The position numbers were made by a program, and so were the translations under genes. From Squalus acanthias (Eukaryota), in NCBI GenBank assembly GCA_030390025.1, contig CM059432.1, positions 51,710,001-51,774,000 of the forward strand: 64,000 nt of DNA, written 5' to 3'. The notes beneath the pieces are model-generated. The model was not told where the DNA came from. It saw only the letters and a list, made by a program, of their open reading frames with translations, and made no database searches. Positions 8,187 to 54,444 of this stretch are shown one piece after another (position 1 is the stretch's first letter; every line of letters starts with the position of its first letter).

Positions 8187-9432
8187 GTCGCACATGTGAC
8201 CACAGCCTCTAAAGCTACGCTGAGCAGCAGAATCAGACACTGAGGGGTGATACCGGGTGCTCCAACTAGGGAGCATAGTGCTGTTAATTGCCTCCTTCTG
8301 TGCTGTAAATTCTTTGATTCTGTGATCAAGGTTTTAGCCCCTGTAACACTATCACTCAAAATGACAGATGACTTAGTTGGGCCTTGGCTTCCATCCCCAC
8401 GAGCCCCTGTACACTCATTCTTGCCCTGAAATCCTTCTCCTGTAATTGGTAGAAATTCACCCTGATGCACTCTCTGCTGCTGTCTTACTTTTCTTCATTA
8501 AATTGCTGACTTTGCTTCTCTCATTCCCTCACCTTCTTAAAAATGTCCTCATTTGTGCTCCCATAAACCCCCAACACCCCAGCCCCACCCTGTGTACCTC
8601 ACACTTCCAAACCTGGTCTCTGCACTTCACCACTTTCTGTCATACAGCTTTTTTCATGTGCCTTCTTAACCTTGTCTCTCAGAACCATCAGCTTCATTCT
8701 GTGCAAGCTGTTTATCTGTTCTGACTATAGCATCATATCCAACCACAAGCTAGTGCTAATTAATCTGCACCTGAAAAGAATCTAATTCCTGTGGTCGACT
8801 GTCAATTTCCAATCTTTTGCACAAATCAGTAATCTACCTTCCCTTCTTCCTCCCACATCTGCTACTCCTCTTTCAGAAACTCAATTACTGCTTGTCTTTT
8901 TGATTATCTTATTATATCTGCTGCATCTACTGCTGTGCCACATCCTAATCAACATCCAATATCTGGTTATGACACCATGGGGGAATTTTAACTTGGATGA
9001 GTGCTGGGTTTGAGTGCGGGTGGGGAGTTAAAACCGGCAAAAATGTCAGGAAGCCGGCTCCAACCCACCGACTTCTGCATTTCACTGGAGTGCATTGGGC
9101 TGTGTACAAGCAACTCCCTCGGGAGAGGCAGGTTGCCAATCAACATTTGTAAATCTCTCAATTACACTGATATTGACTAGATTTTTGTGCTTAACGTCGG
9201 GTCCACAGGTTTCCCGGGCTTCCTGGAACTTGCCAGTGAAAGCAAGGCGAGTACACAGCGGCAGTTGAGGAGGCTGAAGCAATCCCAGGGTAATATGCCA
9301 ATAAGTACTTAGTACACAGCTGTCTTACCTGCTAGTGGGAAAGGGTTTGCTCAAAGTCATTTTGCTGAGAGGTTACTTTACACACTTTGGAGGTTTCATC
9401 TGCATGTTGGAGCTCTGATCTATCAGATCAGG

Positions 9433-10320
9433 ATGGGTGCCGCTTATGCTGCCTTAGATTGGGCCTCAGATGAGGACCAAGATGACCAGCAACAGCACCA
9501 GCAAAAGCCTGCTGGTCACAGACCTGTAGCTCCACAGCAGAGAGCGCAGCAGCAGAGGTGCAGCTCACAGCAGGCCATCCCCAGCACACAGGGTCTACAA
9601 ACAGAGGATAAACTTCCTCGACATGTCTCAACACCAGTGTGCCAGGAGCTGCCAGCTGGACCTGCTGACCATGCTTTACCAGTGGCTGTCAAAGTCACCA
9701 CCGCCCTCAACTTCTTTGTCTCTGGATCCTTCCAGGGCTCTGCTGCAGATATTTGCAGGATCTTGCAGTCGGCGGCCGACAAATGCATAAGACAGGTGAT
9801 CGATGGCTTGTTCGCCAGGGCCATCAACTTTGCTGCGATGATGCCAGTCAGAATGAGTGGGAGCTCGGGTTTGCAGCTCTGACTGACTTCCCACTGGTAC
9901 AAGGCGTCATCAACTGCACACATGTGGCAATCAGGGCACTCGCAGATCACCCAGGAGTGTTTGTCATCCGCAAGGGCTTCCACTCCATGAATGTGCAGCT
10001 GGTGTGCAACGACAAAAAGATCTTTATGCAGGTATGTGCACGATTCCTGGGCAAGTGTCATGACGCTTTCATCCTGCGGCAGACTAACCTCGCTGACATC
10101 TTCGCAGCTGGAAGCAGAGTTACCGGCTGGCTGCTAGGAGACAAGGGATATCCACTTAAAACGTGGCTGATGATACCTCTCAGAAACATGTGAAATGAGG
10201 CCCAAGAGCGGTACAATCAATTCCATGTCACCACCAGATGTGTCATAGAACAAGCCATTGGCATGCTGAAGATGCACTTCAGGTGCCTGGATAGATCTGG
10301 AGGCGCTTCAGCAGAAGTAG
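9433..10320 (+). pseudogene. Harbinger DDE transposase (HARBI1-like), disrupted
   Basis: LPVAVKVTTALNFFVSGSFQ, GVINCTHVAI (catalytic D to N), KGFHSMNVQLVC, HDAFIL, WLLGDKGYP, IEQAIGMLKMHFRCLD; frameshifts and a stop. Confidence 0.92.
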
Positions 10321-10573
10321 AGGCAGGCTGCTCAGATCCCAGCCCTGACAGTTGAGATGCACTTGGCCGATGTTCTCTGGATTTTGAAGCCCGTGAGGGC
10401 CCTGCCAAAGACTGCTCCACTTGCACCTGTGCAGGGGCAGACTCAGAGATCGGGATACGAGGCAGCATGTAGAATACTGACTGCGGCGGGGGTGGTGGTG
10501 GGGAAACGGGTGATAAGTGGAAGCGCTTTGAGTGGTGTCCCCATTTCCATATCCCCTTTTGCCATCATCCCTC

Positions 10574-13170
10574 TCATGGCCCAGCCGCACTGTGCTGGAG
10601 AGCACTTTGCTGCAGATCACTGGGGTGCTGCAAGGCCAAGGCTAGGGTATCTGTCATCCTATTTAAGGTGGCATCCAGAGTCTGCAATACCTTGCTCAAG
10701 GCCTGCATGGACTCATATGTTTGCCGCATTTGATGTTCCATATAGTTGGCCAGTCTATCCATGCAAGAAGACATCAACCCACTCATGCTTGAGGCAGGCT
10801 TCTCCAATCTCTCTGCAATTGTGGACAGTGAACTTGGAAGGCCTATCAGTGCATCGCACATTCTCTGCAGCTGCTCAATCATTATCCTCTTCATCGATGG
10901 CCCCTGGGATACAGCATCTGTGTCCAGCTGAGCAGAGCTTGGAGAGAGCTGTGCCCACCGACGCGGACTCTCCACTGCTGTTCACATCACCACCATCTGC
11001 TCTTGCTCACTTGTGAAGTGTACGTCACCGGGTGAAAACCCAACTGTCTGTCTTACTGGTCCCATCGAAGTGCGAATAGCTGAGCTGGTGTATGGTATGC
11101 ATGAGTCATGTGACGGTGCACCCTCAGAATGATTGATCTCCTCTGAGGAATCATCGTCCGTGACCTCCATCAACTCCTGCTGCATGCGCGAAGGCCCTGT
11201 GAGAGATAAAAGACATGAATGAGTACTGGCAAGGTAAGAATGTTACAACTTCTCATTAAGAACATGATCATATATCACTCACTGTTGACATCAAGTCAAC
11301 GTGACTGAGTGTCTTATGAAATGTGGCTGTCTGATATTTAATTGTGTCAGAAGGTAGCTGGGAGGTCCCCATTCCCCATCTCCAACGGCCAGGCACGCCG
11401 AGACTCCACTGATCTCCAGCACCTCCTTCTCTGCACATGTGAGTTGTGAGATGGCTGGAGGGCCACCTTCAGTTCTCTGCCTCTCCCTGCTGTTCTGTGC
11501 TCTCTTCTCCTGCAAGGAGGGGAAGAACAGATCTATGAGTGAGTGTAATTGCATGTGTCCATCCGATGGATATGAGCATAAGTACAATGATGGACAGGTA
11601 AAGCCCCTCTGGTCCATCCAGCCTGTCCCACACAATTGTGATACCTTGTGTTTCACAATATATGCACTCACCACCCCACCCAAAACCATGTGATCTCCTG
11701 GGAGAGGCTAAAAACCCAGGTCAATTTGGGGGAAAAGAATCTGGGAAATTCCTCTCCGACCCATCTAGGTGATCGAAAATAGTCCAGGAGATCACTTTGG
11801 TCCTGAATCCCTTGAAGTACCTATCTTTTGTAAGAGGTGATGTCCGCCCCAACCAGAAACAGGTCCAGCTCTCGCTTGAAGGAATTCTGAGAATCGGTGT
11901 ACACTGCACGAGACGACAGCCTGTTCCAGAGGTCCATTATTCTCTGGGAAAAGAACCACCTACTGACATCTAGATCTGGCCTTACACAACTTAAAATTGT
12001 GACCCCAGTCCTCCATGACCTATTTAATTGGATCCAACTGTCAACTGGAACGCAATCTGTTCCCTTCATCATCTTATAAACCTCAATCAAATCACTCCTA
12101 AGTCTACGCTTCTCGAAAGTGTGGAGTCCCAACTCTTTTAGCCTATCTGGATAACTAAGCTGTTTTATACTGGGAATTGGTCTAGTGGCCATCCTCTGCA
12201 CCCTTTCAAAAGCCTCAATATCACCCACCATGTGAGGAGATCAAAACTGGACATAGTGTTCCAAGTGAGGCCTGACCAAGGTCTTGTACATGGGCATAAT
12301 AGAATGCCTTGTCTTAAAATCAATTGTCCTATGAATGCACCCCAACACTCTATTTGCTCTAGGGATTGGTTCACAGCATTGCTCTTGTACCTTTAGGGAT
12401 CTCCACCTTCTTAAATGCTTTTCCCTGAAGGGTGTATGAATGTGAGCATTCACCCTGTGCACATGCATAACACTGAACTTATCCAAATTAAACATCATTT
12501 GCTAGTCATGAGCCCAATCTACAACACTTTAAGATCCACCTGAAGCAGTCGAGCATTGTCTACTGTTCTAACACTCGCACAGGAGAGCATTTGGTGAGGG
12601 TGAGTATCAGAGAGAGGCATGACATTGCATAAGAATGAGGATGAGTATCAGTGGTGGATGGATATATGGGGATGTGAGGAAGTGCATAGACAGGGAGGGA
12701 TGGGTGCACCTGGAATGTAAGTGGGTGTGAGGATTGATGTGATGGAGTAGCTTGAGAAGGCAGAGTGAGGGGATGGGCTGATGCGCAGAGCAGGATGTAG
12801 GTGAATGTGGCATTGTACTCACCTTTCTTGACCTGGTTAGGTCATTAAAGCACTTCTTGCACTGCATCAAGGAGCATGGCACTGGGTCATTGGGTCAAAT
12901 CTGTCCCAGTTCTTCTGATGAAAACAATGCCTCAAAATGAGAATAAATGAGTTGAAGCCCAGACAGTAAATATTGGTTTCTATATTGACTCCTGCTGCTG
13001 ACCTCCTCGGCAACCCCCAACCACGCCTTCTTGGTCTCTGCCATAGGTTTCTTCCTCCCATTGCTGGGGAATAGTATCTCCCTCTGGCTCCTCACAGCCC
13101 CCAGCAGCACATCCGGGGAGGCATCATTGAAACGGGCACAGCCTTTGCACGTCTTACTTCCATTCCTCAA
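10574..13170 (-). pseudogene. Harbinger Myb/SANT (trihelix) gene, three exons, disrupted
   Basis: Exon 1 ~13170-12823 (ARFNDASPDVLL..KKAW..QCKKCFNDLTRSRK|gtgagt); exon 2 from ~11509 (EKRAQNSRERQRTEGGPP); exon 3 from ~11196. Confidence 0.85.
11590..12580 (-). mobile_element. CR1-like LINE 3' fragment nested in the Myb intron
   Basis: YKTLVRPHLEHYVQF, FERVQRMATR, KRRLRSDLIEVYK. Confidence 0.85.
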
Positions 13171-17708: not shown

Positions 17709-19176
17709 CCTTCATACTTCACTGGAATGTCATTATAAATGTTGTGCTTCCACTACTAGACATTATTAGCACATTTTCTAAATGGTTTACCCAGTGATGT
17801 TTTAAAGGCATGCCAAAGATGATATAGCATTAAATAAAATTATTGCACTTTTCCTCAATCTTGTGGATTACTCGAAAATAGACAAGAGTTGAAGTGGACT
17901 CCTTGAGAACTGTTTTTCTGAATGCATGTTCCCAATGTGACTCCCAGGCGCTGGGACTGCAAATCAGGAAGTCAGGGGTGATGTTCCTACAATTTTCATC
18001 CATTGTTTTAATGGATGGAAAATCATGGGGAGCGTGCCTGCAATTTCCTGATATGTGCTCCCAGTGGGCGCAGCTCCACCCCAGAAGCGTGGATTCATAA
18101 TATGCTTCTGAATTCAGAAAGTAAATGGATTAGCAATTTAAATGAGTGCCGCAGGAATTTGAAGTAAACTCATTAACCAGTGTACTAAAAATAGTGCTTT
18201 GAAAAAATGTCAACTCCCACATCTAACAGTATCGCTTTTAGTGTAAAAAAAAACCAAATCTGAATTGAAACGAAACAAAAGGTCATCTTAAGTTCTTCTT
18301 CCATTTTACTGAATTAATCCATACTCAATGAATTTGCAATATTTTGGAGTCAGGCATTGGGCTTGCTGCCAATCACTCGAGATATGAAATATAAGAAATT
18401 ATTGCAAAATAGATTTGTACTGTAATAATTTATACTAAAAAGTGGCAATAGATGAAAAACAATAATGGGGTGATATAATTCAATCAACTAACTAGACTAA
18501 TTTCAGTCCATAGTGAACTATCTTTGCATGGATCCCATTTTGTTTTCTTCTCTGTCAGAAACTGACAGTAGGTTCACCCAGTGAAGTATTAGCTGTAAGT
18601 AAGCTTGTAAATCCCTGTGATGCAAATACTCTTAGAGCCTTTATATTTTCACAATTTACTTCAAAACCTTCATTTGCTCACTACTTAATGCCATTCCCCA
18701 GTAGATTTGCAGCATCATTACATTATTAACTTTTATAAAGGAGATTTGCAGTGGATTTTTTGGGGCAAAAACAAAACCTCCTTGAACTGTCCCTTCCCCA
18801 TTTGGCACTGTGCTACGATGTTATATATTTAATGTCGTATATCAAATCCGAAAGCAGAACCATTTACTGTGCAGGAAAGAAATTAGATTATTCTTCCAAT
18901 GGTGCCATTGAAGGCACAAAGACAGACCTATTAAAATGCTGGTAAAGAGTTCTTTTCATCTTCACACTTTGAATCATTTTTCTTTCAACAGCTTTTGGGG
19001 ATTTTATATTGCCTTGAAATTGCTTCAGTGTTTGAAGGTAGATGAACTGATGTGTGCACTAAAAACCAGAAGGAAGCAGTAGCACCTGTGGCAAATGCTC
19101 AGTTACAGGATATGATTATTACCAATTATTAATTATAGGTTCACTTATCACAAAAAAAACATTAACTACGATTTGA

Positions 19177-19266
19177 AATAAAAACAGAAAATGCTGGAAA
19201 TATTCAGCAGGTCAGGCAGCATCTGTGGAGAGAGAAACAGAGTTAACGTTTCAGGTCCTTTGGTCA
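19177..19266. mobile_element. Short retroposed fragment (possibly Penelope-like) with a 13-bp TSD
   Basis: AACTACGATTTGA at 19164-19176 and 19267-19279; related piece near 36645-36685. Confidence 0.6.
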
Positions 19267-19377
19267 AACTACGATTTGAGATTGCTTAAAAATTGTATTA
19301 TGTGCAAAAAGTTACTTCAAAAAGTGAAGTTACAGTCTCTTACTCATTCATAAGATCACTTTATGATTACATACCAA

Positions 19378-20082: not shown

Positions 20083-20093
20083 CAAGACTTTCT

Positions 20094-22002
20094 AGCCTAG
20101 AAATTCAGTGGTTTGATACCACCCATTAACGCCATAATCAGACGAAAAATTGCAGCAGTCGCTCTTCTGCCAGCTGGCGGTGGGTCCCGTGGCAGCTGCC
20201 ATTTTGGGGTGGCCGGCATCGCTGCCGATAGAAGCAATCACTGAAATGATTGAAATTAAGCAGATCGTGACGTCAGTGAGTGTGCAACGCTCACTTGACG
20301 CCCAATCTGCGAAGTTGAATTTCACCACTACACTTACTGGCATGCCTTAACAATGACAAGCTGAGCAAGCATTGAGAAGCAGGAAGGAGGCTCCCGCAGT
20401 GGTATTTAAAGGGATCATTAGCAATCACTTGCATCTGACCTATTTATGCAGTTTGACTGGCTCTGTGCAACTTTCTACCACTCCACCAGCTTTATTAACT
20501 TCTTTCAAGGTTCTAAGATAACAGGGAGTGTTGTTGCAAGTGGAGAACGTCTTCATTATTTTTTTAAGGCTTCTGCTCACAACACTTGCTCACAGTCATG
20601 GGGGCTGTGCTGGCAGTCGACCTCGCCCTCCAGGATCTTCAGCAGAGGGAGTGGAGGCAGCGAAGAAGGGGAGAATTTCCGCACAGAGGGAGGAAGAGGA
20701 GGGCCAGGAGCATTCTAAACAGGAGGCCTTACCCACCGAGGGTCTTCCGAGAGCACTTCTCTTATATCCATTTAAGCGAGGAGCGGTGTATTAGGAGGCT
20801 ATGCTTCACCAAGGAGGTAGTCACAGAACTCTGCCACCTCCTGCAACCACACCTGCAGCCTGAGAGCAGGGCAACTACGGCTCTCCAAGTGGCAGTCAAG
20901 GTCACCGTGGCCCTCAATTTCTTCGCCAGTGGATCCTTCCAGTCTGCAGCAGGAGACATATCTAACATCTCACAGTTCGCCATCCATCGCTGCATTTGAG
21001 AGGTCACTGATGTTCTGTACAACAGGAGAAGGGACTATGTTGTCTTCTCTCTGAGCAGAGAGAAGCAGGATGAGCGAGCATGTGGCTTTGCCAGGATAGC
21101 GGGCTTCCCTATGGTGCAGGGCGCCATCGACTGCACACATGTGGTTTTGCATATGCTGTAAAACAATCCTGAGATTTTCCATAACTGCAAAGGCTACCAC
21201 TCACCTAATGTGCAGGTGGTGTGCAATCACACCCAGTGATTCCTCAATGTCAATGCCCGTTATCCTGGCAGCAGGCATGATGCCTTCATTCTGCGTCAGT
21301 CCGGTGTGCCAGCAATTTTCCAGCCACCGCAGCAAACTCGAGGATGGCTGTTCGGAGACAAGAGCTATCCACTGTCCACTTGGCTCATGACTCCCCTCCA
21401 CAACCCCAACACTTGTGCCCAGCCATACTTCCACCAGGAACATCATCGAGCAGACCATCGGGCTACTGAAGCAACGGTTCCGCTGTTACATGGTCGGCTA
21501 TCTCCTGCCACATGGTATGGGAGATGTATGGTGAGGGCTTCCTGTCAGTTTGGGGGTAGAGTACAGCCCGCCTCCTCTCCATGGCCACAACAAGTGCCTC
21601 CAGAGTTTTGTCCGAGGACCTCCTGCCTCTCCCTGTTAGGATGCTTTGCCACTGCTTTCAACCAGCAACTCTAACTCCTGCTCCTGCTCCTGCTTGTTGG
21701 GGCAGCTCCAGTTGCAACGGCCCTGACAATGAGGTGCTGTAGCATCAATGCACCTCCCCTTTAAGTGGTGGAAGGAGCCTGTGGCACACATGACTATGAA
21801 TTAGACTGGCCCCGATATTGATCCACCTGTTGAACGTTAAGCCAATGAGCAGCAATTTTAGCGCTGAAATCATGATTACAACCATATTAATGAGGAGTGA
21901 ATATGAATTTTGCATGCCACCTAGACCATTTTGAGGTGGCGCAGCTTAACATCATTTGGCCTTAACACTGCCCATTTCTTAGCTATATCCAATTTCTAGA
22001 CC
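20094..22002 (+). mobile_element. Internally deleted Harbinger (H2a): transposase pseudogene ~20598-21490 (plus) and Myb start remnant (minus)
   Basis: RRPYPPRVFREH, VAVKVTVALNFFASGSFQ, GFPMVQGAIDCTHV, GWLFGDKSYP; ends ..CCTAGAAATT / AATTTCTAGACC. Confidence 0.9.
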
Positions 22003-22460
22003 ACAAGCTCTGGAAACAGTATAGAGAAGAGCCACAAGGCAGATCTCCAGTGTTTGGGGTATGAATTATGAGAAAAGATTGGAGAAATGTAAACTTTTCA
22101 GCCTAGAAAGAATGTGTCTGAGAGGTGATCATATAAAGATATATAAAATTGTTAAAGCTATAGAAAAAGTTAACCCAGAATATTACTTTAAATTAAACTG
22201 TGGGCGTGGAACAAGGGTATGCAGGTTCAAACTAGAGAAGGGTACTTTTAGCACAGATAACAGGAAAATTTTCTCCACACAAAGAATGAACAATATGTGG
22301 AGTAAACCTCATGTAGAGTAAGTGAGACAAAAACCTTGGAATCATTTAAGAAACAACTGGATGCTACGATGGAGGGGAGTTGTTGGAATCTCTTTGGATG
22401 GATAAATCAAATGGGTCAAAAGGCCTTTCTCATACATCATTTTCTTGTGATCTTGTGAAA
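22003..22460 (+). mobile_element. 3' half of a CR1-like LINE (inverted relative to its 5' half at 27914-28880)
   Basis: QALETV*RRATR, YEKRLEKCKLFSLE, LRGDHIKIYKI; tail TTCTTGTGATCTTGTGA. Confidence 0.85.
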
Positions 22461-22797
22461 TATTATAGCTCAGAAGCCTGTATCCTCAGTAAGGTATGAC
22501 CTCTACTCAATCATGTAATATATTGCATCAGTAAATGTGCTGTATTACAGCAATGGGCTGTTGCATTTAGGTTGCAGTGAAACTGTGGTAAACATCAAAA
22601 GCCATGTTCTAAATCCTGGACTACTCATGTCCCAGTGCCATACATTTCCCAGTCAAGAAATCATATAGTACAATGGGATGCATGAATATTCCTCTCGTGA
22701 TTTTTCTCTCCCTCTTTGTAGTGTACAATTGATTCAAGATACAAAGTACTCAGCCAAATGCTATAACTGTGCACTTAAATCTCTGTTAAAGAAATAT

Positions 22798-25700
22798 GGG
22801 CTAGAAATTTGTTATAGCAAAGGAATGGGCAGTGTTTAGTCTAAAAATGGTTAAGTAGCGCCAGGCGAAAATCATCTAGACTGCACACAAAATTCGTCCT
22901 CACTCCTCATTAAAATGATTGCAGTCATAATTCTAGTCTAAAAACCCAAGCTCATTGGCGTTACACTGAAAAGATGGACCAATATCGGGTGTGGTCTAAA
23001 CTCAATTAATGATTGCCACCAGCTTTTTTCACTACTTAAAGGGGAGGTTCATTGATGCTGCAGCACCTCATTCTCAGCATTGTTAGGTGTGCAGCTGCCT
23101 CAACAACCATAAGAAGAAGGATAAGGAGAAGGAGCACTTATTTACAAATGCTGATGGCAGATCGCAACCCCAGGGAGAGAGCCTGGAGGTTTTCGGATGA
23201 AGCATTGGAGGCATTGATTTTAGTGGTGGAGAGAAGGCGGGTAGTCCTGTCCCTGCCAACTGGCAGGAGGCCCTCACCTCAAGTCTGCTGGACTATGTGG
23301 AGGGAGGTGGCACACGTCACAGGCAGCACTGTGGTCCCCAGGACCCGCACACAGTGCAGGAAGAAGTTTAACGAGCTCACACGGGTGGTCAGGGTGAGTG
23401 AAGGCTTCAATAAATGTTACATGCCACCATCTGTGCCACAAGCTTGTGTTTGCTAGTGCTGTTGGAGAGGGTTTAAACTAAAATGGCAGGGGGTTGGGAA
23501 CCTGTGCAGGGAGACAGAGGAAAGGGAAGCAAGGATAGAAGCAAAAGACAGGAAGGAGAAAAGTAAAAGTGGCAGTCAGAGAAATCAAGGGTGTAAATCA
23601 AACATGGCCACAGTAAATAATAATTCTAAAAGGTCTAAGAATTTTAAAAAAGCAAGCCTGCAGGCTTTGTATCTTAATGCAAGGAGCATTCGTAATAAGT
23701 TGGATGAATTGACTGTGCAAATAGATGTAAACGGATATGATATAATTGGGATTACGGAGACGTGGCTCCAAGGTGACCAAGGCTGTGAATTCAACATCCA
23801 GGGGTATTCAATATTCAAGAGGGACAGGCAAAAAGGAAAAGGAGGTGGGGTAGCATTGTTGGTTAAAGAGGAGATTAACACAATAGTAAGGAAGGATATT
23901 AGCTCTGATGATGTGGAATCTGTATGGGTAGAGCTGAGAAATACCAAGGGGCAGAAAACGTTAGTGGGAGTTGTATACAGACCCCCAAACAGTAATGCTG
24001 AGGTTGGGGATGGCATTAAATGGGAAATTAGAGATGTGTGCAATAAGGGCACAGCAGTTATCATGGGTGACTTTAATCTACATATAGATTAGGCTAACCA
24101 AATTAGTAACAATACTGTGGAGGAGGAATTCCTAGAGTGTATACGGGATGGTTTCCTGCACCAATATGTCGAGGAACCAACTAGAGATCAGGCCATCCTA
24201 GACTGGGTATTATGTAATGAGAAAGGATTAATTAGCAATCTTGTTGTGCGAGGCCCCTTGGGGAGGAGCGATCATAATATGATAGAATTCTTCATTAAGA
24301 TGGAGAGTGAAGTAGTTGAATCAGAGACATGGGTCCTGAATTTAAATAAAGGAAACTACGATGGTATGAGGTGCGAATTGGCTAGGATGGATTGGGGAAT
24401 GTTACTTAAAGAGTTGATGGTGGATAGGCAATGGCAAACATTTAAAGATCGCAAGGATGAACTACAGAATTTGTTCATCCCTGTTTGGCATAAAAATAAA
24501 AAAAAAGGTGACTCAACCGTGGCTAACAAGGGAAATTAGGGATAGCATAAGATCCAAGGAGAGGACATATAAATTGGCCAGAAAAAGCAGCAAACCTGAG
24601 GATTGGGAGCAGTTTAGGATTCAGCAAAGGAGGACAAAGGGATTAATTAAGAGGGGGAAAATAGAGTATGAGAGTAAGCTTGCAGGGAACATAAAAACTG
24701 ACTGTAAAAGCTTCTATAGATATGTGAAGAGAAAAAGATTGGTGAAGTGAAGCGTAGGTCCCTTGCAGTCAGAATCAGGGGAATTTATAATGGGGAACAA
24801 AGAAATGGCAGACCAATTAAATACATACTTTGGTTCTGTCTTCACAAAGGAGGACACAAATAACCTCCCAGAGATGTTGGGGAACATAGGGTCTAATGAG
24901 AGGGAAGAACAGAATGAAATCAGTATTTATAGGGAAATGGTGTTAGGGAAATTGATGGGATTGAAGGCTGATAAATCCCCAGGGCCTGATAATTTACATC
25001 CTAGGGTACTTTACGAAGTGGCCCTAGAAATAGTAGATGCATTGCTGGTCATCTTCCAAAATTCTATAGACTCTGGAACAGTTCCCATGGATTGGAGGGT
25101 ATCTAATGTAACCCCACTATTTAAAAAAGGTGGGAGAGAGAAAACGGGGAATTATAGACTGGTAAGCCTGACATCGGTTGTGGGGAAAATGCTAGAGTCC
25201 ATTATAAAAGATGTAATGGCAGAGCACTTGGAAAACAGTGACAGGATTGGACAAAGTCAATATGGATTTACAAAAGGTAAATCATGCTTGACTAATCTAC
25301 TGGAATTTTTTGAGGATGTAACTGGTAGAATAGATAAGGGAGAACCAGTGGATGTGGTGTATTTGGACTTTCAGAAGGCTTTCGATAAGAGATTGCCGTG
25401 CAAAGTTAAAGCACATGGAATTGGCGGTAAGATACTGACTTGGATAGAGAACTGGTTGGCAGACAGGAAGCAAAGAGTTGGAATAAACGGGTCTTTTTCC
25501 GAGTGGCAGGCAGTGACTAGTGGGGTACCGCAGGGATCGGTGCTAGGACCCCAGTTATTCACAATATATATCAATGATCTAGACGAGGGAACTAGATGTA
25601 ATATCTCCAAGTTTGCAGACAACACAAAGCTGGGTGGGAGTGTGTGTTGTGAGGAGGATGCAGAGAAACTCCAGTATGATTTGGACAGGTTGGGTGATTG

Positions 25701-27913
25701 GGCAGATGCATAGCAGATGCAGTATAATGTGGATAAATGCGAGGTTATCCACTTTGGTGGCAAAAACAGGAAGGAAATTATTATCTGAATGGCAATAGAT
25801 TGGGAAAAGGGGAAGTGCAACGAGACGTGGGAGTCCTTGTGCACCAGTCGTTGAAGGTAAGCATACAGGTGCAGCAGGCAGTTAAGAAAGCAAATGGTAT
25901 GTTGGCCTTCATAGCGAGAGGATTCGAGTACAGGAGCAAGGATGTCTTGCTGCAGTTGTACAGGGCCTTGGTGAGACCACACCTTGAGTATTGTGTGCAG
26001 TTTTGGTCGCCTTATCTGAGGAAGGATGTTCTTGCCATGGAGGGAGTGCAGCGAAGATTCACCAGACTGACACCTGGGATGGCAGGAATGACGTATGAAG
26101 AGAGATTGGGACGATTGGGCTTGTATTCGCTAGAGTTTAGAAGAATGAGAGAGGATCTCATTGAAACTTATAAAATTCTAACAGGACTAGACAGACTGGA
26201 TGCAGGAAGGATGTTCCTGATGGCGGGGGAGTCCAGAACCAGGAGTCACAGTCTAAGGATAAGGGGTAATCCATTTAGGACTGAGATGAGGAGGAATTTC
26301 TTCATCCAGAGAGTGGTGAACCTGTGGAATTCTCTACCACAGAAGGAAGTTGAGGCCAATTCATTAAATATATTCAAGAAGGAGTTAGATATATTTCTTA
26401 AGGCTAAAGGGATCAAGGGATATGGGGAGAAAGCAGGGACAGGGTACTGAATTTGGATGATCAGCCATGATCTCATTAAATGGCGGAGCAGGCTCGAGGG
26501 GCTGAATGGCCTACTCCTGCTCCTATCTTCTATGTTTCCATGTTTCTGTAAGCTTCACACACTGCTCAATGCGCCACACCCCCAGCACTCACCCACCAAC
26601 AATCTCTATCTAGCAACACTCACACCCACATCTCACACCTTGCACACAATGGCAGCTATTCAATTGTGGCAGGCACAAGGGTCATTAGTTATTAGAATTC
26701 ATGTGATATGTGTGATATGTTTATAGATAAATTTATTAATTGTGTTTGGAATATTTTGTGATTTCTCTCATTTCACCTTTGCGCCCAGGAGGACGCTGTG
26801 ATATGGCATGAGACAGGGATTGTATCATGGGGATGTTGTGAGCAACGGGGATCTGGGGTTTCAGTCATGCAAAACAGAGTCTGATGAGCCGGTCATGGAC
26901 AGCCCATCCGGAAGGCCGATTGTCCCGTTGCCTCCTCTCTCCCTCCTTTTCCTCCTCCTCCTCATCCTCCTCCTCATCCTCCTCTCTCCTCCTCCTGAGG
27001 TGGTCCCGCAATCTCTGGTGGCAAGGGCTGCGCCCTCATGATGGCCAAGTTGTGGAGCATACAGTAGACCACCACGAAATGGGACACCCGCTCTGGCGAG
27101 TACTGGAGGGCTCCTCCTGAGCGGTCAAGGTAGCGGAACCGTTGCTTCAATAAGTCGATGGTCTGCTTGATGATGTTCCTGGTGGCAGCATGGCTCTCAT
27201 TATACGAGTGCTGGGCACGAGCGTTGGGGTTGTGGATGGGAGTGATGAACCAGGTGGAGAGCGGATACCCCTTGTCTCCGAGCAGCCACCCTCGAGCTTG
27301 ATGTGGTGGCTGGAAGAGTGCTGGCACACCGGTCTGGTGCAGGATGAAAGCATTGTGGCTGCTGCCAGGATAGCGGACATTGACACTGAGCATTCGTTGT
27401 CTGTGGTCGCACACCAACTGCACATTAAGTGAGTGAGTGAGTTTTAGCAAGTGTTGTACTTTGAAGCCTTTCAAAAATAATGAGGGAGTTTAGTATTTGC
27501 CAGAACACTCCCTGATACCAAAGAGCCTTGAAATTACTAAGCAAAACTTGTCCAGTAGCAGGAATTAGCACACAGCCGCTCAAACTGCAAAACCCTGACA
27601 GGTGTGAGTGATTGGTGAGGATCCCTTTAAATAGCGTCGCTGCAGTCGGCTTCCTGCTGCTGCACGCTTCCTGAAGCTGTCGTTGCTTTCTCCAGCCAGT
27701 AAGCACATTGGCTAAAATAAAGTTGGGAGATCGGGCGTCCAGTGAGCGTTGCACACCCACTGACATCACGATCTCCATCATGGTGAGCTCTCTGGTGATC
27801 GAGGTTACCGGCATCGCTACCAGCACCACCGATATGTCCTGCTGGATCAGGCATCAGCTGTTGTTACAGCTGTCAACGACACTTTAGCGCCATCTCCTGA
27901 GAATTTCTCCCCC
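22798..27913 (-). mobile_element. Harbinger H2b (same family as H2a, opposite orientation): Myb exon 1 on plus (~23151-23393), transposase C-terminus on minus (~27430-26900)
   Basis: GGGCTAGAAATT / AATTTCTCCCCC; RERAWRFSDEALEAL..QCRKKFNEL|gtgagt; SLNVQLVCD, WLLGDKGYP, LKQRFRYLD, MLHNL. Confidence 0.9.
23446..26549 (+). mobile_element. CR1 LINE with the end of ORF1 and near-complete disrupted ORF2 (APE plus RT), inserted in the H2b Myb intron
   Basis: YLNARSI, GITETW, VYRPP, MGDFN, SDH; RT with FADN; stops at 24092, 24750, 25713 and frameshifts; TSD AAGCTT at 23440-45 and 26550-55. Confidence 0.97.
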
Positions 27914-28880
27914 TGTATGTCTTCCTTGTTTCTTGGCGACCAGAACTGGACGCAGTATATAATATACGGTCTAACTAGAGCACTATAAACTTTGATCATT
28001 GCTGCTCTGCATTGGTTGGACATATTTAGCATCGAGTCTACTAAGACTCCTCGGTCTCTTTCAGTCTCATCCTTAGCTGTTACAACATCATTTATACATG
28101 TGTCTTTTTTTTCTTTCCAGGTGTTGAACTTTACATTTGTCTGCATAAAATTTCATCTGCCATTGTTCTGGCCACTTACATATCTCGTCCAACTCATTCT
28201 GTAATTTGGCCACCTTGCATTGAGTTTCTGAATGCAGGTTATTTATGTAATTTAGAAACAGTTGAAGTCCCAGTACTGAGCCCTGAGGCACCATACTCAG
28301 TATTCCCTGCACCCCCCACCCCACTCTAACATAACTCATCTAATGAGTGCTCATTGTTTCCTTCCCAGGGTCTACTCCGAATCCACACAGCTTTGACTTT
28401 AATTAATAGTTTTTTTTGTGGAACTTTGTCAAAAAGCCTTTTGGAAGTTAAGGTACACCATGTTATAGGGCTTACCACAGTCCAGGTAGGTTGTTACATC
28501 CTCAAAGAAGTTGAGGAGGTTGGTCAGGAAGGATCTTTCCATTCTTAATCCATGTACACTGCTGTTTACTCGATTGTTATTGTACAGATGGTCCTCAAGT
28601 TTACTCCTAGTAATCAGTTCCATTATTTTACATGGGATGGAAGTAAAACTAATGAGTCTGTAGTTGCCTGTGTCTGTTTTGCCCCAATTTTTGAATATAG
28701 GCACCACATTAGCCTGTTACCAATCTTTTGGCACCCCAGTGTCCAATGGCTCTTTCATAATTAGAGCTTCAAAAATGTCCCTTTCAGCACTATAGAATAA
28801 ATACCAATTATCTCTGGCTATTTATTTGTTGTTGAGTCTAATTAACCTGTCTAGGACTTCCATTTCATTTATAACAAAAT
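27914..28880 (-). mobile_element. 5' half of the split CR1-like LINE
   Basis: [53 protein letters not shown] ending at the Harbinger TIR. Confidence 0.85.
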
Positions 28881-28884
28881 CATT

Positions 28885-29490
28885 GATCCCGATTTTAACT
28901 CCTGGCAGAAACCGGGGAGCAGTGTGAGAGAGTTGAAATGGAATGGGAGACTTACCCACTCCTTTCCTGCCCCGATCTGACTGCTTGTTATTTTAAATTG
29001 TAGGCGGCAAGGACACCCACCCCTAGCTGGCAGGGTCCTCTTCAAATATGCAGATCAGGCTCTGATGACGTCATCGAGGCCCGGTCTGCCTTCTTAACTG
29101 GAAGCCTGAGTGGGGAAGCAGTGACGGCTTTGCCGTCAGGCCAAACCTGTCGGAGGCTGGATCGTGGGCCAGAAGAGGTCATTTACAAATTTTTTGGGGG
29201 GTTTCCTTGTGGGCCAGGAGGAGCAGGGGTGCTCCTCTGGGCCCCAAAGAAACCTGGGCCTCCCTTGCTCTGAGCTTCCCTTCCCCTCTCCTCCCCTGAT
29301 CACAATCACCACCGGACCCCATTCCCTCACCACTTACCTGAGTGTCGTGGATCATTCCCATGGGTCCCCAGCCTCGGCCTCTTGCCGCCCAAATTGTCAC
29401 TTCCGTCCGCCAGCCAGGCAGTGACTTCTGCCGGGTTCGGGCGGGAGTCGTGGTCTGGATATAGAAATAAGGCTAGGGAGTTAAAATCTC
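28885..29490. mobile_element. Non-autonomous Harbinger-like element, family C-related
   Basis: GATTTTAACTCC / GGAGTTAAAATC inverted ends; family C core at ~29205-29235. Confidence 0.65.
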
Positions 29491-30575: not shown

Positions 30576-30774
30576 GGGACCATGCCACCTGGCCTTTTAT
30601 ACAATTAAGGGCAGAACTGTATTCTTATTTAATATGTTAGCATCAACACTAATGCAATAAAAAGAAACTTTTCCATAACCATGATAATAATTCAATATAA
30701 TTTACATGAGTCTCCAACACAGTTTATGTTCACAAGTCAAAAATTCACTGAAGCATCAGGCAAGAAATGATTTC

Positions 30775-31260
30775 AGTGCAGTAAAAATAAGGACATTTGC
30801 ATAGAGAAAATAAGGAGATTTACATAGTGAAAATAAGTATATTTGCATACACTGAAAATAAGGAGATTTGCATAGAGAAAATAAGGAGATTTACATAGTG
30901 AAAATAAGTATATTTGCATACACTGAAAATAAGGAGATTTGCATAGAGAAAATAAGGAGATTTACATAGTGAAAATAAGTATATTTGCATACACTGAAAA
31001 TAAGGAGATTTGCATGCTGTGAGAATAAGGAGATCTGCATAGTGAAAATATGGAGATTTGCATACAGTAAAAATAAGTGCATTTGCATACAGTGAAAATA
31101 AGGAGATTTGCATACAGTGGAAGTAAGTACATTTGCATACAGTGAAAATAAGGAGATTTGCATACAGTGGAAGTAAGTACATTTGCATACAGTGAAAATA
31201 AGGAGATTTGCATACAGTGGAAGTAAGTACATTTGCATACAGTGAAAATAAGGAGATTTA
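30775..31260. repeat. Minisatellite of 23-25-bp units with 71-bp and 50-bp higher-order periods
   Basis: Consensus CATACAGTGAAAATAAGGAGATTTG; about 20 units. Confidence 0.97.
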
Positions 31261-38564: not shown

Positions 38565-40342
38565 GGCCACGATTTTGCTGACCAAGGCGGGTCTGGGGCG
38601 GCCGGGGTCAGTGTCGCGGTCCCAGCCTGCTCCCGGCTCCAGCCCGCTCTCTCTGAGTGATTTTACGTAGATCGGGCTTGTTAAGCCTGCCCTGCAGGGT
38701 TCCTGGCCAATAAAATAAAAGCGGGTCTGATGATGTCATTTGATGACGCGTCATCAGCCAGTTTCCTTAAAGGGGCCATGTCCACATTCATTTTGACAGT
38801 TGTGCTGTCAGAGTTCTGCAGCACTGAGGTGCTGCAAACACTGACAAGCACAGCACAGAGGTGCACAGCTATACCGAGGCTCTCGCATGACTCCCTCCAT
38901 ATGCTTATGGAGGGAGTCACAGCACGCAGGGAGGTTCTCTTCCCTTCCAAGGGTGGAAGAGACCTCCCCAGGAGATCAACGCAGCCTGGTTGCACATTGC
39001 ACAGGAGGGCAAAAGCAGGGATATTGTCAGGAGGACCAGGCTGCAGTGGCGCAAACCTTTCAATGATCTCAGTAGATCACAAAATGTTACTGCAAAGCCA
39101 CACTCAACCTCATCCTGCTGTGCCACTCATCACATCCCCATCACTCTGCCTTTCCTACCCTACTCCTGCACATCCTTACTCACATCAACTTACTTTGCAC
39201 CTCTACCCATCCCTCTCTATCTACATTATCACTTCCCCATCTCACTTGCCACCCCTCACATTCACCCTCATCCTAGTCCAATCATACCAACTAACAACAC
39301 ACAAGGGTAGGCACTTGGGTGTCTTATGCAATGTTCATGTAAATTTTCTGTTAATGTGTTGTCAAACATTAAAATCTTTATTTTCAACACTTTGCCTTAT
39401 TGGACAGATCTGTGCTCACCTTTAGAAGTGTCTTAGTGAGTTCCAGTGAATGTTGAGACATAACTTCCCCTCCCCCACAAATGTGAAAAGTGTGAAAGGA
39501 ATGGCTTGGTCATTGTAGGGATGCTTTAGGTGCTGGTCTGGGACGGTGTCAACCTGGTGCATCATGTGGCAGCCAGGGTGTACAGCGTTAAGTGAAGTAA
39601 ATCTGGCCATGGTGATGCCATCGCTGGCCTCCCGGGCAGCAATGTTGTCAGGTGCTGATGGCCTGTGTCCTGTGCAGCATCAGGTGATTGCGGAGAAGGT
39701 TGGTGTTGTTGGTGTGCCTGGTGATGTTGGTGTTGGGGCTGATCGTGGAGGGATTCAGAGGACCAAGGTGGGATTTTTTCAAGGGCACTGATGTTGCTGC
39801 AATGGATGGCAGCTGAGGTTGAGATGACAGAAGCGATCTGTCAATGGTGAGAGAGCTTGCTCCCAGGAGGTGACAGTGGATAGAGAGTTTACTCCAAATA
39901 CTTTCAAACTGCATACAGGTCAAAAGTGTCTTCCAAGTCCTGAAGGCTCAAGCTTCTGACATTGGAAAGTGAACAGCTGTGAAATGGTATCTTTCATACC
40001 ACTTTTGCAGCTGCCACCTATTCACAGCAATGGGGAGACAGAGAGTAGCCGACCTACTTACCTGGCGTGATCTCCGGACAACGTGAACCTTGTTAAAAAA
40101 GTGGTAAAATAGAAAAAGGCTGGCAAAATAGTAGTTAACAAGCGTTTAACAAGCATTTAACTATCTTAAATGCCTCCCCCGCCGCTTGGTGTCGGGCCTG
40201 TTCTGAATTCGCAGACCCGACACTTTGGAAACTTACATGCAGACGGGTTCGGAGCGGGCTTCCAACCCACTGTCAATCATTCCGATTTTGACAGCGGACC
40301 CGTCTCCAAACCTGCCCTCTGAGCGCTGGCAAAATTCAGCCC
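38565..40342 (+). mobile_element. Non-autonomous Harbinger H3 (Myb exon 1 on plus, transposase 5' remnant on minus)
   Basis: TIR GGCCACGATTTT / AAAATTCAGCCC; TSD TAT; PRLSHDSLHMLMEGV..LQWRKPFNDL. Confidence 0.9.
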
Positions 40343-52686: not shown

Positions 52687-54444
52687 GGCCGCGATTTTGC
52701 CGGCGCTCAGCGGACTCGATTGGTGGCGTGTCAGTTGTGAAATTTAAAATGATTGACAGCGGGTCGGGAACCTGCTGTCAAAATGCGCACACTTGCATTT
52801 CCCGATGTCGGGTATGCTAGCGCTGAGCAGACCTGACAAGCAGCGGTGGGGGACCCAATTCAAATCATTAGTGGCTTGTTTACAGCTACTTAACAATGCT
52901 TTTTTTCCAGCTTTTTAACTTTCACAGGTCTCCCACGGGTTTCCTGCTGTGCCGAGACCTCATCAGTGAAGCTGAGGCGGGAGGTCAATTGCCATTGAAT
53001 CAGCTGATGAGTTGACAGCTTCAAATGTCAACTCAAAGCTCCCAGCTGATTCCGATATCTTCCCTTAAGCACTAGCATCTCTAAACTGTATTTCCACTAC
53101 AGATTCAGGATGCTGCAAGTCCTTGCACAAGTCTCCATGCAGTTTGAACTCATTACCTCTCCCACCATTGACAGATCGCTTCTGTCATCTCTATTTCACC
53201 TGCCATCTATTCCATCAGCATGGGTGCACTTTATACTCTCTCACCTTAGTCCTCAGAATCAGATCATGATCAGCCCCAACACCAGCATCACCAGGCACAC
53301 CAGCAGCACCAACAACAACACCAACTTTCTCCGCAATCACCTGAAGCTGCACAGGACAGAGGGCATCAGCACCCGACCACATTGCTGCCCGGGATGCCAG
53401 GGATGGCCTCACCATGGCCACATTTACTTCACTTGACGCTGCACACCCTGGCTGCTACATGATGTGCCAGGTTGGCACCACCCCACACCAACACCATAAA
53501 GCATCCCTACAAAGCCCAAGCCATTCCTTTCACACTCATCACCATTGCGGGCGGTACCGTTATGTCTCACCATTCACTGCAACTCACTAAGCCACTTCCA
53601 AAAGTGCACACAAATCTGTCCAAGAAAGCAAAATGTTGAAAGTACAGGTTTCAATGTTTGACAGCACATTAACAGAAACTTCACATGAACATTGGCTAAA
53701 ACACACAAATGCCTATCCTTGTGTGTTGTTAGTTGGTATGATTGCACTAGGATGAGGGTGAGTGTGAGGGGTGGCTAGTGAGATGGGGATGTGATAATGT
53801 AGATAGAGAGGGATGGGTGGAGGTGCAAGGTAAGTTGGTGTGAGTAAGGATGTGCAGGAGTAGGGTAGGGAAGGCAGAGTAATGGGGATGTGATGAGTGG
53901 CACAGGAGGATGAGGTTGAGTGTGACTTTGCAGTAACATTTTATGATCTATTGAGATCATTGAAACGTTTGCGCCACTGCAGCCTGGTCCTCCTGATGAT
54001 ATCCCTGCTTGTGCCCTCCTGTGCAATGTGCAACCAGGCTGCGTTGGTCTCCTGGGGAGGTCTCTTCTGCCCATTGGAAGGGAAGAGAACCTCCCAGTGT
54101 GCTGTGACTCCCTCCATAAGCATATGGAGGGAGTCATGGGAGAGCCTGGGTGCAGCCATGCACCTCTGTGCAGTGTTTGTCAGTGTTTGCAACACCTCAA
54201 TGCTGTAGAAAACTGACAGTGCAAATGTCAAAGTAAATTTGCGCATGGTCCCTTTAAGGAAACCGGCTGATGTTGCATCACGAGACCCGCTTCCTTCAAT
54301 TGGCCAGGAAATGCACTGGGTGGGCTTAACAAGCTCAATCAGGGGAAAGTCATGTCGGAGGCAGGGATGGTGCCAACAGCAGGGCCAAGACCCGCCACCG
54401 ACGTCGCCCGCCATGGACCTGTCGAGGTAGAGAAAATCGTGGCT
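52687..54444 (-). mobile_element. Non-autonomous Harbinger H4 (same family as H3, inverted)
   Basis: TIR GGCCGCGATTTT / AAAATCGTGGCT; TSD TTA; APRLSHDSLHMLMEGV..QWRKRFNDL. Confidence 0.92.

Follow-up and report, generated by a model that had tools for sequence, protein, structure and literature searches.

A LINE split between two inverted Harbinger copies in Squalus acanthias: a small inversion, possibly produced by reversed-ends transposition

The window described here, that is, the whole stretch of DNA analysed, comprises 64,000 nt of repeat-rich vertebrate DNA from Squalus acanthias, and its main features are two internally deleted Harbinger transposons, H2a and H2b, which are inverted relative to each other and each of which abuts one half of a split CR1 long interspersed nuclear element (LINE) (Table 1). 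The transposon ends were defined by four 12-nt terminal inverted repeats (TIRs), a at 20094, b at 22002, c at 22798 and d at 27913. The split LINE, the target site duplication (TSD) at b and d, the inverted homology of the two copies and the unmatched flanks of a and c are directly seen in this DNA. The analysis was based on the 64-kb window, protein references and one read comparison against public runs. Both copies belong to PIF/Harbinger, as shown by a DDE_Tnp_4 transposase, a Myb/SANT-like second open reading frame (ORF2), the 12-nt TIRs and the 3-bp TSD ACA. End d is proximal to the transposase (5' end) and end b is proximal to ORF2 (3' end). H2a retains the 5' region, the transposase and a reversed ORF2 fragment, which has no Pfam match and is 50% identical to the ORF2 domain of H2b. 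In H2b the 5' region is likewise present, the transposase is missing its first ~600 bp, and what remains of ORF2 contains a nested 3.1-kb CR1; the joint free of this CR1, from 23439 to 26550, was present in 4/4 public runs.

Table 1. Features at the locus (positions in the window; a dot marks features without strand)
Feature	Position	Strand	Remarks
Harbinger-type miniature inverted-repeat transposable element (MITE), TSD CAA	19378..20082	.	8 bp outside the flank triplet of end a; bystander, used as control
Perfect 7-bp hairpin	20089..20103	.	Arms 20089-95 and 20097-103, straddling left flank and TIR of H2a
Flank of end a, TCT	20091..20093	+	No match to flank of end c
H2a, internally deleted Harbinger	20094..22002	+	Ends a (20094-20105) and b (21991-22002)
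H2a transposase, DDE_Tnp_4, HARBI1-like	20598..21486	+	From ATG; 3 stops, 17-bp deletion near 21421, truncated after ...KQRFRC
H2a ORF2 (Myb/SANT-like) 5' fragment	21487..21630	-	Joined to transposase at short microhomology
TSD copy 1, ACA, end b	22003..22005	+	Flank of TIR b
3' half of split CR1 LINE	22006..22440	+	Right end approximate
Unique spacer	22441..22797	.	Last letters TAT = flank of end c
H2b, internally deleted Harbinger	22798..27913	-	Inverted relative to H2a; ends d (27913-27902) and c (22798-22809)
H2b ORF2 first exon, Myb/SANT-like	23151..23396	+	PF13837, E 1e-4, below curated cut-off
Nested CR1, abundant family	23446..26549	+	In probable ORF2 intron of H2b; 6-bp duplication AAGCTT
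H2b transposase, C-terminal part	26865..27435	-	N-terminal ~600 bp deleted at 27436
TSD copy 2, TGT on +, ACA on -, end d	27914..27916	-
5' half of split CR1 LINE, reverse transcriptase (RT) domain, decayed	27917..28883	-

H2a and H2b are inverted homologues in three blocks of 69%, 84% and 71-76% identity, and their longest identical tract is 18 bp. In the stretch of transposase that both retain, second codon positions hold only 6/44 differences (p 0.003) and the ratio of nonsynonymous to synonymous change (dN/dS) is 0.43; the synonymous fraction alone gave p 0.10-0.14. The rarity of second-position differences indicates that H2a and H2b come from sister subfamilies. At TIR position 3, ends a and b have C/T where c and d have G, a post hoc hint. 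The transposases resemble HARBI1-like proteins of Pristiophorus and Heptranchias, but the best match, between H2a and a Pristiophorus protein, reaches only 76% identity. Related DNA was found in none of the metagenome contigs, prokaryote genomes or viral contigs searched. Of the four published systems compared in this text (PMC8225341, PMC2775673, PMC2603318 and PMC3016246), the zebrafish Harbinger3_DR (PMC3016246) shares with the shark copies the combination of a DDE_Tnp_4 ORF and a Myb/SANT-like ORF, short TIRs, a 3-bp TSD and a palindromic target preference; unlike it, the shark copies are decayed and internally deleted members of subfamilies without a close database match.

The position of the LINE relative to the two copies carries the argument for an inversion. 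On the minus strand its 5' half ends in CA at 27914, abutting the TIR GGGGGAGAAATT (27913-27902), and on the plus strand its 3' half begins ACAAGCTCTGG at 22003, abutting the TIR at 22002-21991 and reading QALETV*RRATR. The overlap of the two halves is exactly ACA/TGT, 3 nt, and the codon register is exact across the joined halves. Of 150 reference RT proteins examined, 57 align to both halves, and 51 of these show an offset of +1, which is to say that the halves are contiguous. The probability of such an abutment by chance, within ±3 nt over a LINE of ~3.3 kb, is ~0.002, with the requirement of a TIR at both ends not yet counted. Rejoining the halves gives the site ACAT[ACA]AGCT, with A at -4 and T at +4 just as in 5/5 control MITEs, and this motif resembles the published Harbinger3_DR consensus (PMC3016246). 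The sense strand of both halves is rich in A (0.36-0.38) and poor in G (0.22-0.24), which differs from the nested CR1 (A 0.29-0.32, G 0.30-0.32), and low read depth is common to both. The 150 listed relatives of the 3' half are 31-48% identical to it in all cases but one, the exception being 61% over only 50 residues. In a search for close relatives of the LINE subfamily none was found, and another returned two matches at 44-46%; in the comparison of subfamily membership, made with close references absent, the identities of the references to the two halves were uncorrelated (rho 0.04, p 0.75). Another MITE, with a different TIR type, is inserted at or in the 5' half at ~28887-29490, and weak LINE-like sequence goes on beyond it to about 29620; on this weak evidence the 5' half probably runs past 28880.

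Taken together, the split LINE in register, the ACA at b and d and the rebuilt motif lead us to conclude that ends b and d integrated together at one site and that the region is inverted; the small local inversion is almost certainly real. An earlier note on this DNA had described the split LINE, at 28880-27914 on the minus strand and from 22003 on the plus strand, and the ACA occurring once per strand at b and d, and both observations are borne out. That note further proposed that one Harbinger had inserted into the LINE and that recombination with the neighbouring inverted copy, within the shared transposase segments, had then flipped the intervening DNA. The inversion stands, but recombination in these segments was not demonstrated. 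Reversed-ends transposition (RET), which the note did not consider, yields an identical arrangement of LINE and TSD, so a TSD split between inverted copies is by itself no proof of recombination.

We tentatively and by a narrow margin favour RET by the Harbinger transposase as the source of the inversion, and give this explanation slightly less than an even chance. Each step of the event is one that we infer. H2a (a..b) and H2b (d..c) would at first have had the same orientation, their ends b and d separated by a spacer. The transposase would have brought the 3' end b and the 5' end d together in a synapse, with loss of the spacer and of the partner TSDs of a and c. Integration at an ACA ~0.8 kb beyond c would then have joined b to the 3' half and d to the 5' half of the LINE and inverted the segment at 22003-27913, which is 5.9 kb long today and would have been 2.8 kb if the nested CR1 were a later arrival. 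H2a and H2b would not be chimeras under RET. Several findings agree with such an event. One TSD is split between the termini of two copies, as it equally would be after ectopic recombination, and the ends used are one 5' end (d) and one 3' end (b), from different copies. From the description of RET in PMC8225341 we infer that the flanks of a and c should be unrelated, and they are, TCT against ATA, with the caveat of a hairpin at a. One exchanged and one unmatched TSD pair fits RET, and the identity of only 69-84% between the copies was likewise counted towards it.

The comparison of ends a and c deserves closer attention, since recombination predicts a second exchanged TSD pair and its absence favours RET. 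End a reads ACTT[TCT], and end c reads [ATA]TTTC, or [CAT]ATTT assuming one lost G. The flanks match at 0/3 positions in the 12-nt TIR register and at 1/3 in the motif-consistent register; a 2/3 match would require TIR a to have lost 1 nt, and this disrupts the target motif. By comparison, the TSDs of the five control MITEs are perfect in 3/5 cases and have one mismatch in 2/5, or 2 mismatches in 15 sites; MITEs at 225 and 63295 were excluded, their other end not being found in the window. Reverse-complementing the interval, which the earlier note expected to restore the TSD pairs, restores that of b and d (ACA) but not that of a and c.

The strongest competitor is ectopic (non-allelic homologous) recombination. 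Two inverted copies, A (a..c) and B (d..b), of which B lay in the LINE, would have recombined, and we hold this to be a serious possibility though clearly short of even. The crossover could lie in the facing 3' subterminal blocks, where it would flip only 0.8-1.8 kb and which account for about half of this possibility, in the transposase overlap, for about a third, or in the 5' untranslated block. The exact version of the earlier note, with the crossover in the transposase, is accordingly improbable in our estimate. Recombination between inverted repeats is well documented (PMC2775673, PMC2603318), the copies here are in opposite orientation, and one TSD pair (b/d) is exchanged. The second pair (a/c) is not recovered, so that the exchange of both pairs by which such events are recognised is lacking, the transposase shows no switch of subfamily, and there is no conversion tract of high identity, the first 200 bp of the overlap having 39-44/50 identical positions per window and a longest run of 18 bp. 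In addition, X15, one of the public runs, has 0 records past the ends of the analysed stretch, where one would expect its spacer contig to extend into the left flank; this is a weak point as the counts are incomplete.

Before the evidence was considered, recombination was judged about twice as probable as RET. A number of observations weigh against RET. No report of RET or other alternative transposition for PIF/Harbinger or mPing was found in the literature searched, which covered few subscription journals. A template switch at the 7-bp hairpin may have erased the TSD at end a, which would excuse the missing a/c pair under recombination, and for this reason the mismatch of a and c is estimated to favour RET by a factor of only about three. 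Hairpin arms of this kind occur at 83 of the 64,000 positions of the window, and the hairpin resembles an inverted copy of TIR positions 3-10. If the flanks of a and c were contiguous, an acceptor-like site at 22722 and a donor-like site to the left of a would frame an exon of 84-85 bp, so that the two sites align across the rebuilt a/c site as recombination would have it; this observation is post hoc, and searches of PDB and Pfam with this exon and the one at 18992 gave only chance matches, with no gene identified. The site at 22722 is the top-scoring plus-strand acceptor in the window, and after it a frame of 25 codons stays open as far as TIR c (22700-22797); the X15 differences listed within this stretch, three in number, all fall on third positions. 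Lastly, the read depth and part of the protein comparison also point away from RET.

Summed contig depth pairs the ends crosswise in 4/4 runs, c-terminal with a and d with b, the ratios being 0.7-1.4 for c-terminal/a and 1.1-1.5 for d/b, as compared to 4.1-5.5 for a/b and 2.6-4.7 for c-terminal/d within the same element. This pairing weakly favours recombination. Summed contig depth is not copy number and varies about ten-fold within one half, for example from 1.3k at 27847 to 9.6k at 27492 inside the d half in run X2; the depth bins compared are not strict homologues, that of a takes in the start of the transposase, and the repeat families are common to all four runs. The protein types were compared using 19 of 58 reference transposases. 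The N-terminal part of H2a is like reference P0001 at 13/17 typed sites and clusters with P0001, P0006 and P0022 (support 85/83). In the overlap, H2a has the P0001 state at columns 288, 293 and 300, the first three diagnostic sites, where H2b has the other state; at columns 261, 313 and 324 both copies alike depart from the P0001 state. H2b is like P0030 in the overlap and in its tail, where 18/23 residues agree and the sites stand at 6 to 1; its C-terminal part is mixed, 3 to 2, and the 3 P0001-type sites there speak against RET. The overall difference in type between H2a and H2b has p 0.11, which marks the protein comparison as low-powered, and at this low power a subfamily switch within either copy was not detected against the shark references (Fisher p 0.54 and 0.75). 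The reciprocal chimeras proposed in the earlier note thus find no support in the transposases. As typed from the sequences, the proteins weakly disfavour a crossover within the transposase and are silent on one in the facing 3' blocks. A tree of the transposase overlap left 12/15 inner branches open, with 3/19 references left out. The shared subterminal 6-8-mers did not separate the pairing a-b/d-c from a-c/d-b, and CpG polarity did not change sign between the 5' block (2 vs 8) and the overlap (3 vs 5); at the 3' end it lacked power.

An inversion by breakage and rejoining is also improbable. The breaks could have occurred at the internal junctions, 21486 and 27436, with participation of a third element, or as staggered breaks which duplicated the 290-bp transposase overlap. 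Short microhomologies are present at both internal junctions. In the three-element version B would consist of the d half and the b half, and the a and c halves would come from two other copies, which fits the crosswise depth, the types of the proteins and the mismatch of the a/c flanks all together, at the cost of an extra element. Had staggered breaks duplicated the overlap, its two copies should have diverged neutrally, and this version was rejected by the codon-position bias and dN/dS described above. It is very unlikely that there was no true inversion, because a misassembly had no exact repeat longer than 18 bp to arise from and is countered by the bridging of the inner junctions in X21 and X2, and because two insertions that independently hit one preferred site in two LINE-family copies, conceivable in view of the fit to the Harbinger target motif, the 2/3 agreement of the d and c flanks (ACA against ATA) and a d|LINE junction unbridged among the contigs listed, would require the loss of exactly complementary halves 6 kb apart.

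The read comparison was made at 80% likeness and was dominated by the nested CR1, with 15 joints listed (5274 more) and 32 pieces listed (673918 more). The b|LINE junction is bridged by an X21 contig (21734-22543, 808 bp, 44 differences) and the spacer|c junction by an X2 contig (22343-22853, 511 bp, 2 differences); the sample behind X2 may be that of the assembly itself. Among the pieces listed, none bridges the d|LINE or flank|a junctions, and an X18 piece that extends only 26 bp into c was not counted as a bridge. An X15 contig aligns over 22342-22798 and continues with 264 unaligned letters, which suggests that the organism of X15 may be without the c end at this site. None of the 15 joints listed changes strand as an uninverted allele would, and this lack carries no evidential weight because they are a small share of all joints.

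Other features were observed in the surrounding DNA. The middle of the MITE next to end a has a depth of 189 in run X15 and of 11000-67000 in three other runs, and its family looks lineage-restricted. Two exon-like stretches with strong acceptors lie on the plus strand at 18559-18594 and 18992-19108, the second open in one frame but for one TGA; neither had a match in PDB or Pfam, and they are possibly parts of a host gene or pseudogene. A short interspersed insertion at 19165-19280 has a 13-bp direct repeat on both sides, and a tandem array of roughly 70-bp units occupies 30769-31260. A third Harbinger, more distant and more complete, lies at ~9050-12900, with its transposase on the plus strand and a multi-exon ORF2 on the minus strand. 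A further inverted pair of Harbinger ORF2-type copies was found at 38566-39855 and 53157-54443, 84% identical over 1.3 kb and 13 kb apart.

Inversions linked to transposons are already known, and three systems are instructive here. RET of Ac/fAc in maize creates a new TSD at the joined ends, loses the spacer and leaves one transposable element inside and one outside the inversion, and alternative transposition is also listed for Ac/Ds, P, impala and Sleeping Beauty (PMC8225341). The shark locus resembles the maize case in having an element at each breakpoint, one in and one out, a TSD split between two copies and a 5' end paired with a 3' end. It differs in the superfamily, PIF/Harbinger with a 3-bp TSD and two ORFs instead of hAT, and in being a natural fossil without a progenitor allele, in which the copies belong to sister subfamilies about 70-84% identical and the loss of the spacer is not visible. 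In inversion 2z3 of Drosophila buzzatii two opposite Galileo copies exchanged both TSD pairs, and chimerism was shown against intact copies (PMC2775673); the shark copies share the opposite orientation and an exchanged TSD, but one pair fails and chimerism is unproven. The human-chimpanzee inversions by recombination of Alu or L1, which average 0.8-14 kb, were diagnosed by TSD mismatch between inverted repeats (PMC2603318), and scale, inverted repeats and diagnostic are the same here; in that case, however, the elements are retroelements, for which RET is impossible, and ancestral alleles were to hand.

Weighing the prior against the evidence, RET remains our tentative choice, ahead of recombination, then of breakage and rejoining and, last, of no inversion. 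That the locus is a natural germ-line fossil of RET by a PIF/Harbinger transposase in a vertebrate, with ends from two different subfamilies, is put forward with a little more reserve. As one small inversion in repeat DNA without an identified gene, it is of little consequence. If RET is the true origin, alternative transposition would extend to the PIF/Harbinger superfamily, and the combination of a split repeat, an exchanged TSD pair and a second pair that does not match would serve as a rule for scanning shark genomes. A genome dense in Harbinger ends could then yield small inversions with deletion in countable numbers, as a general source of such rearrangements.

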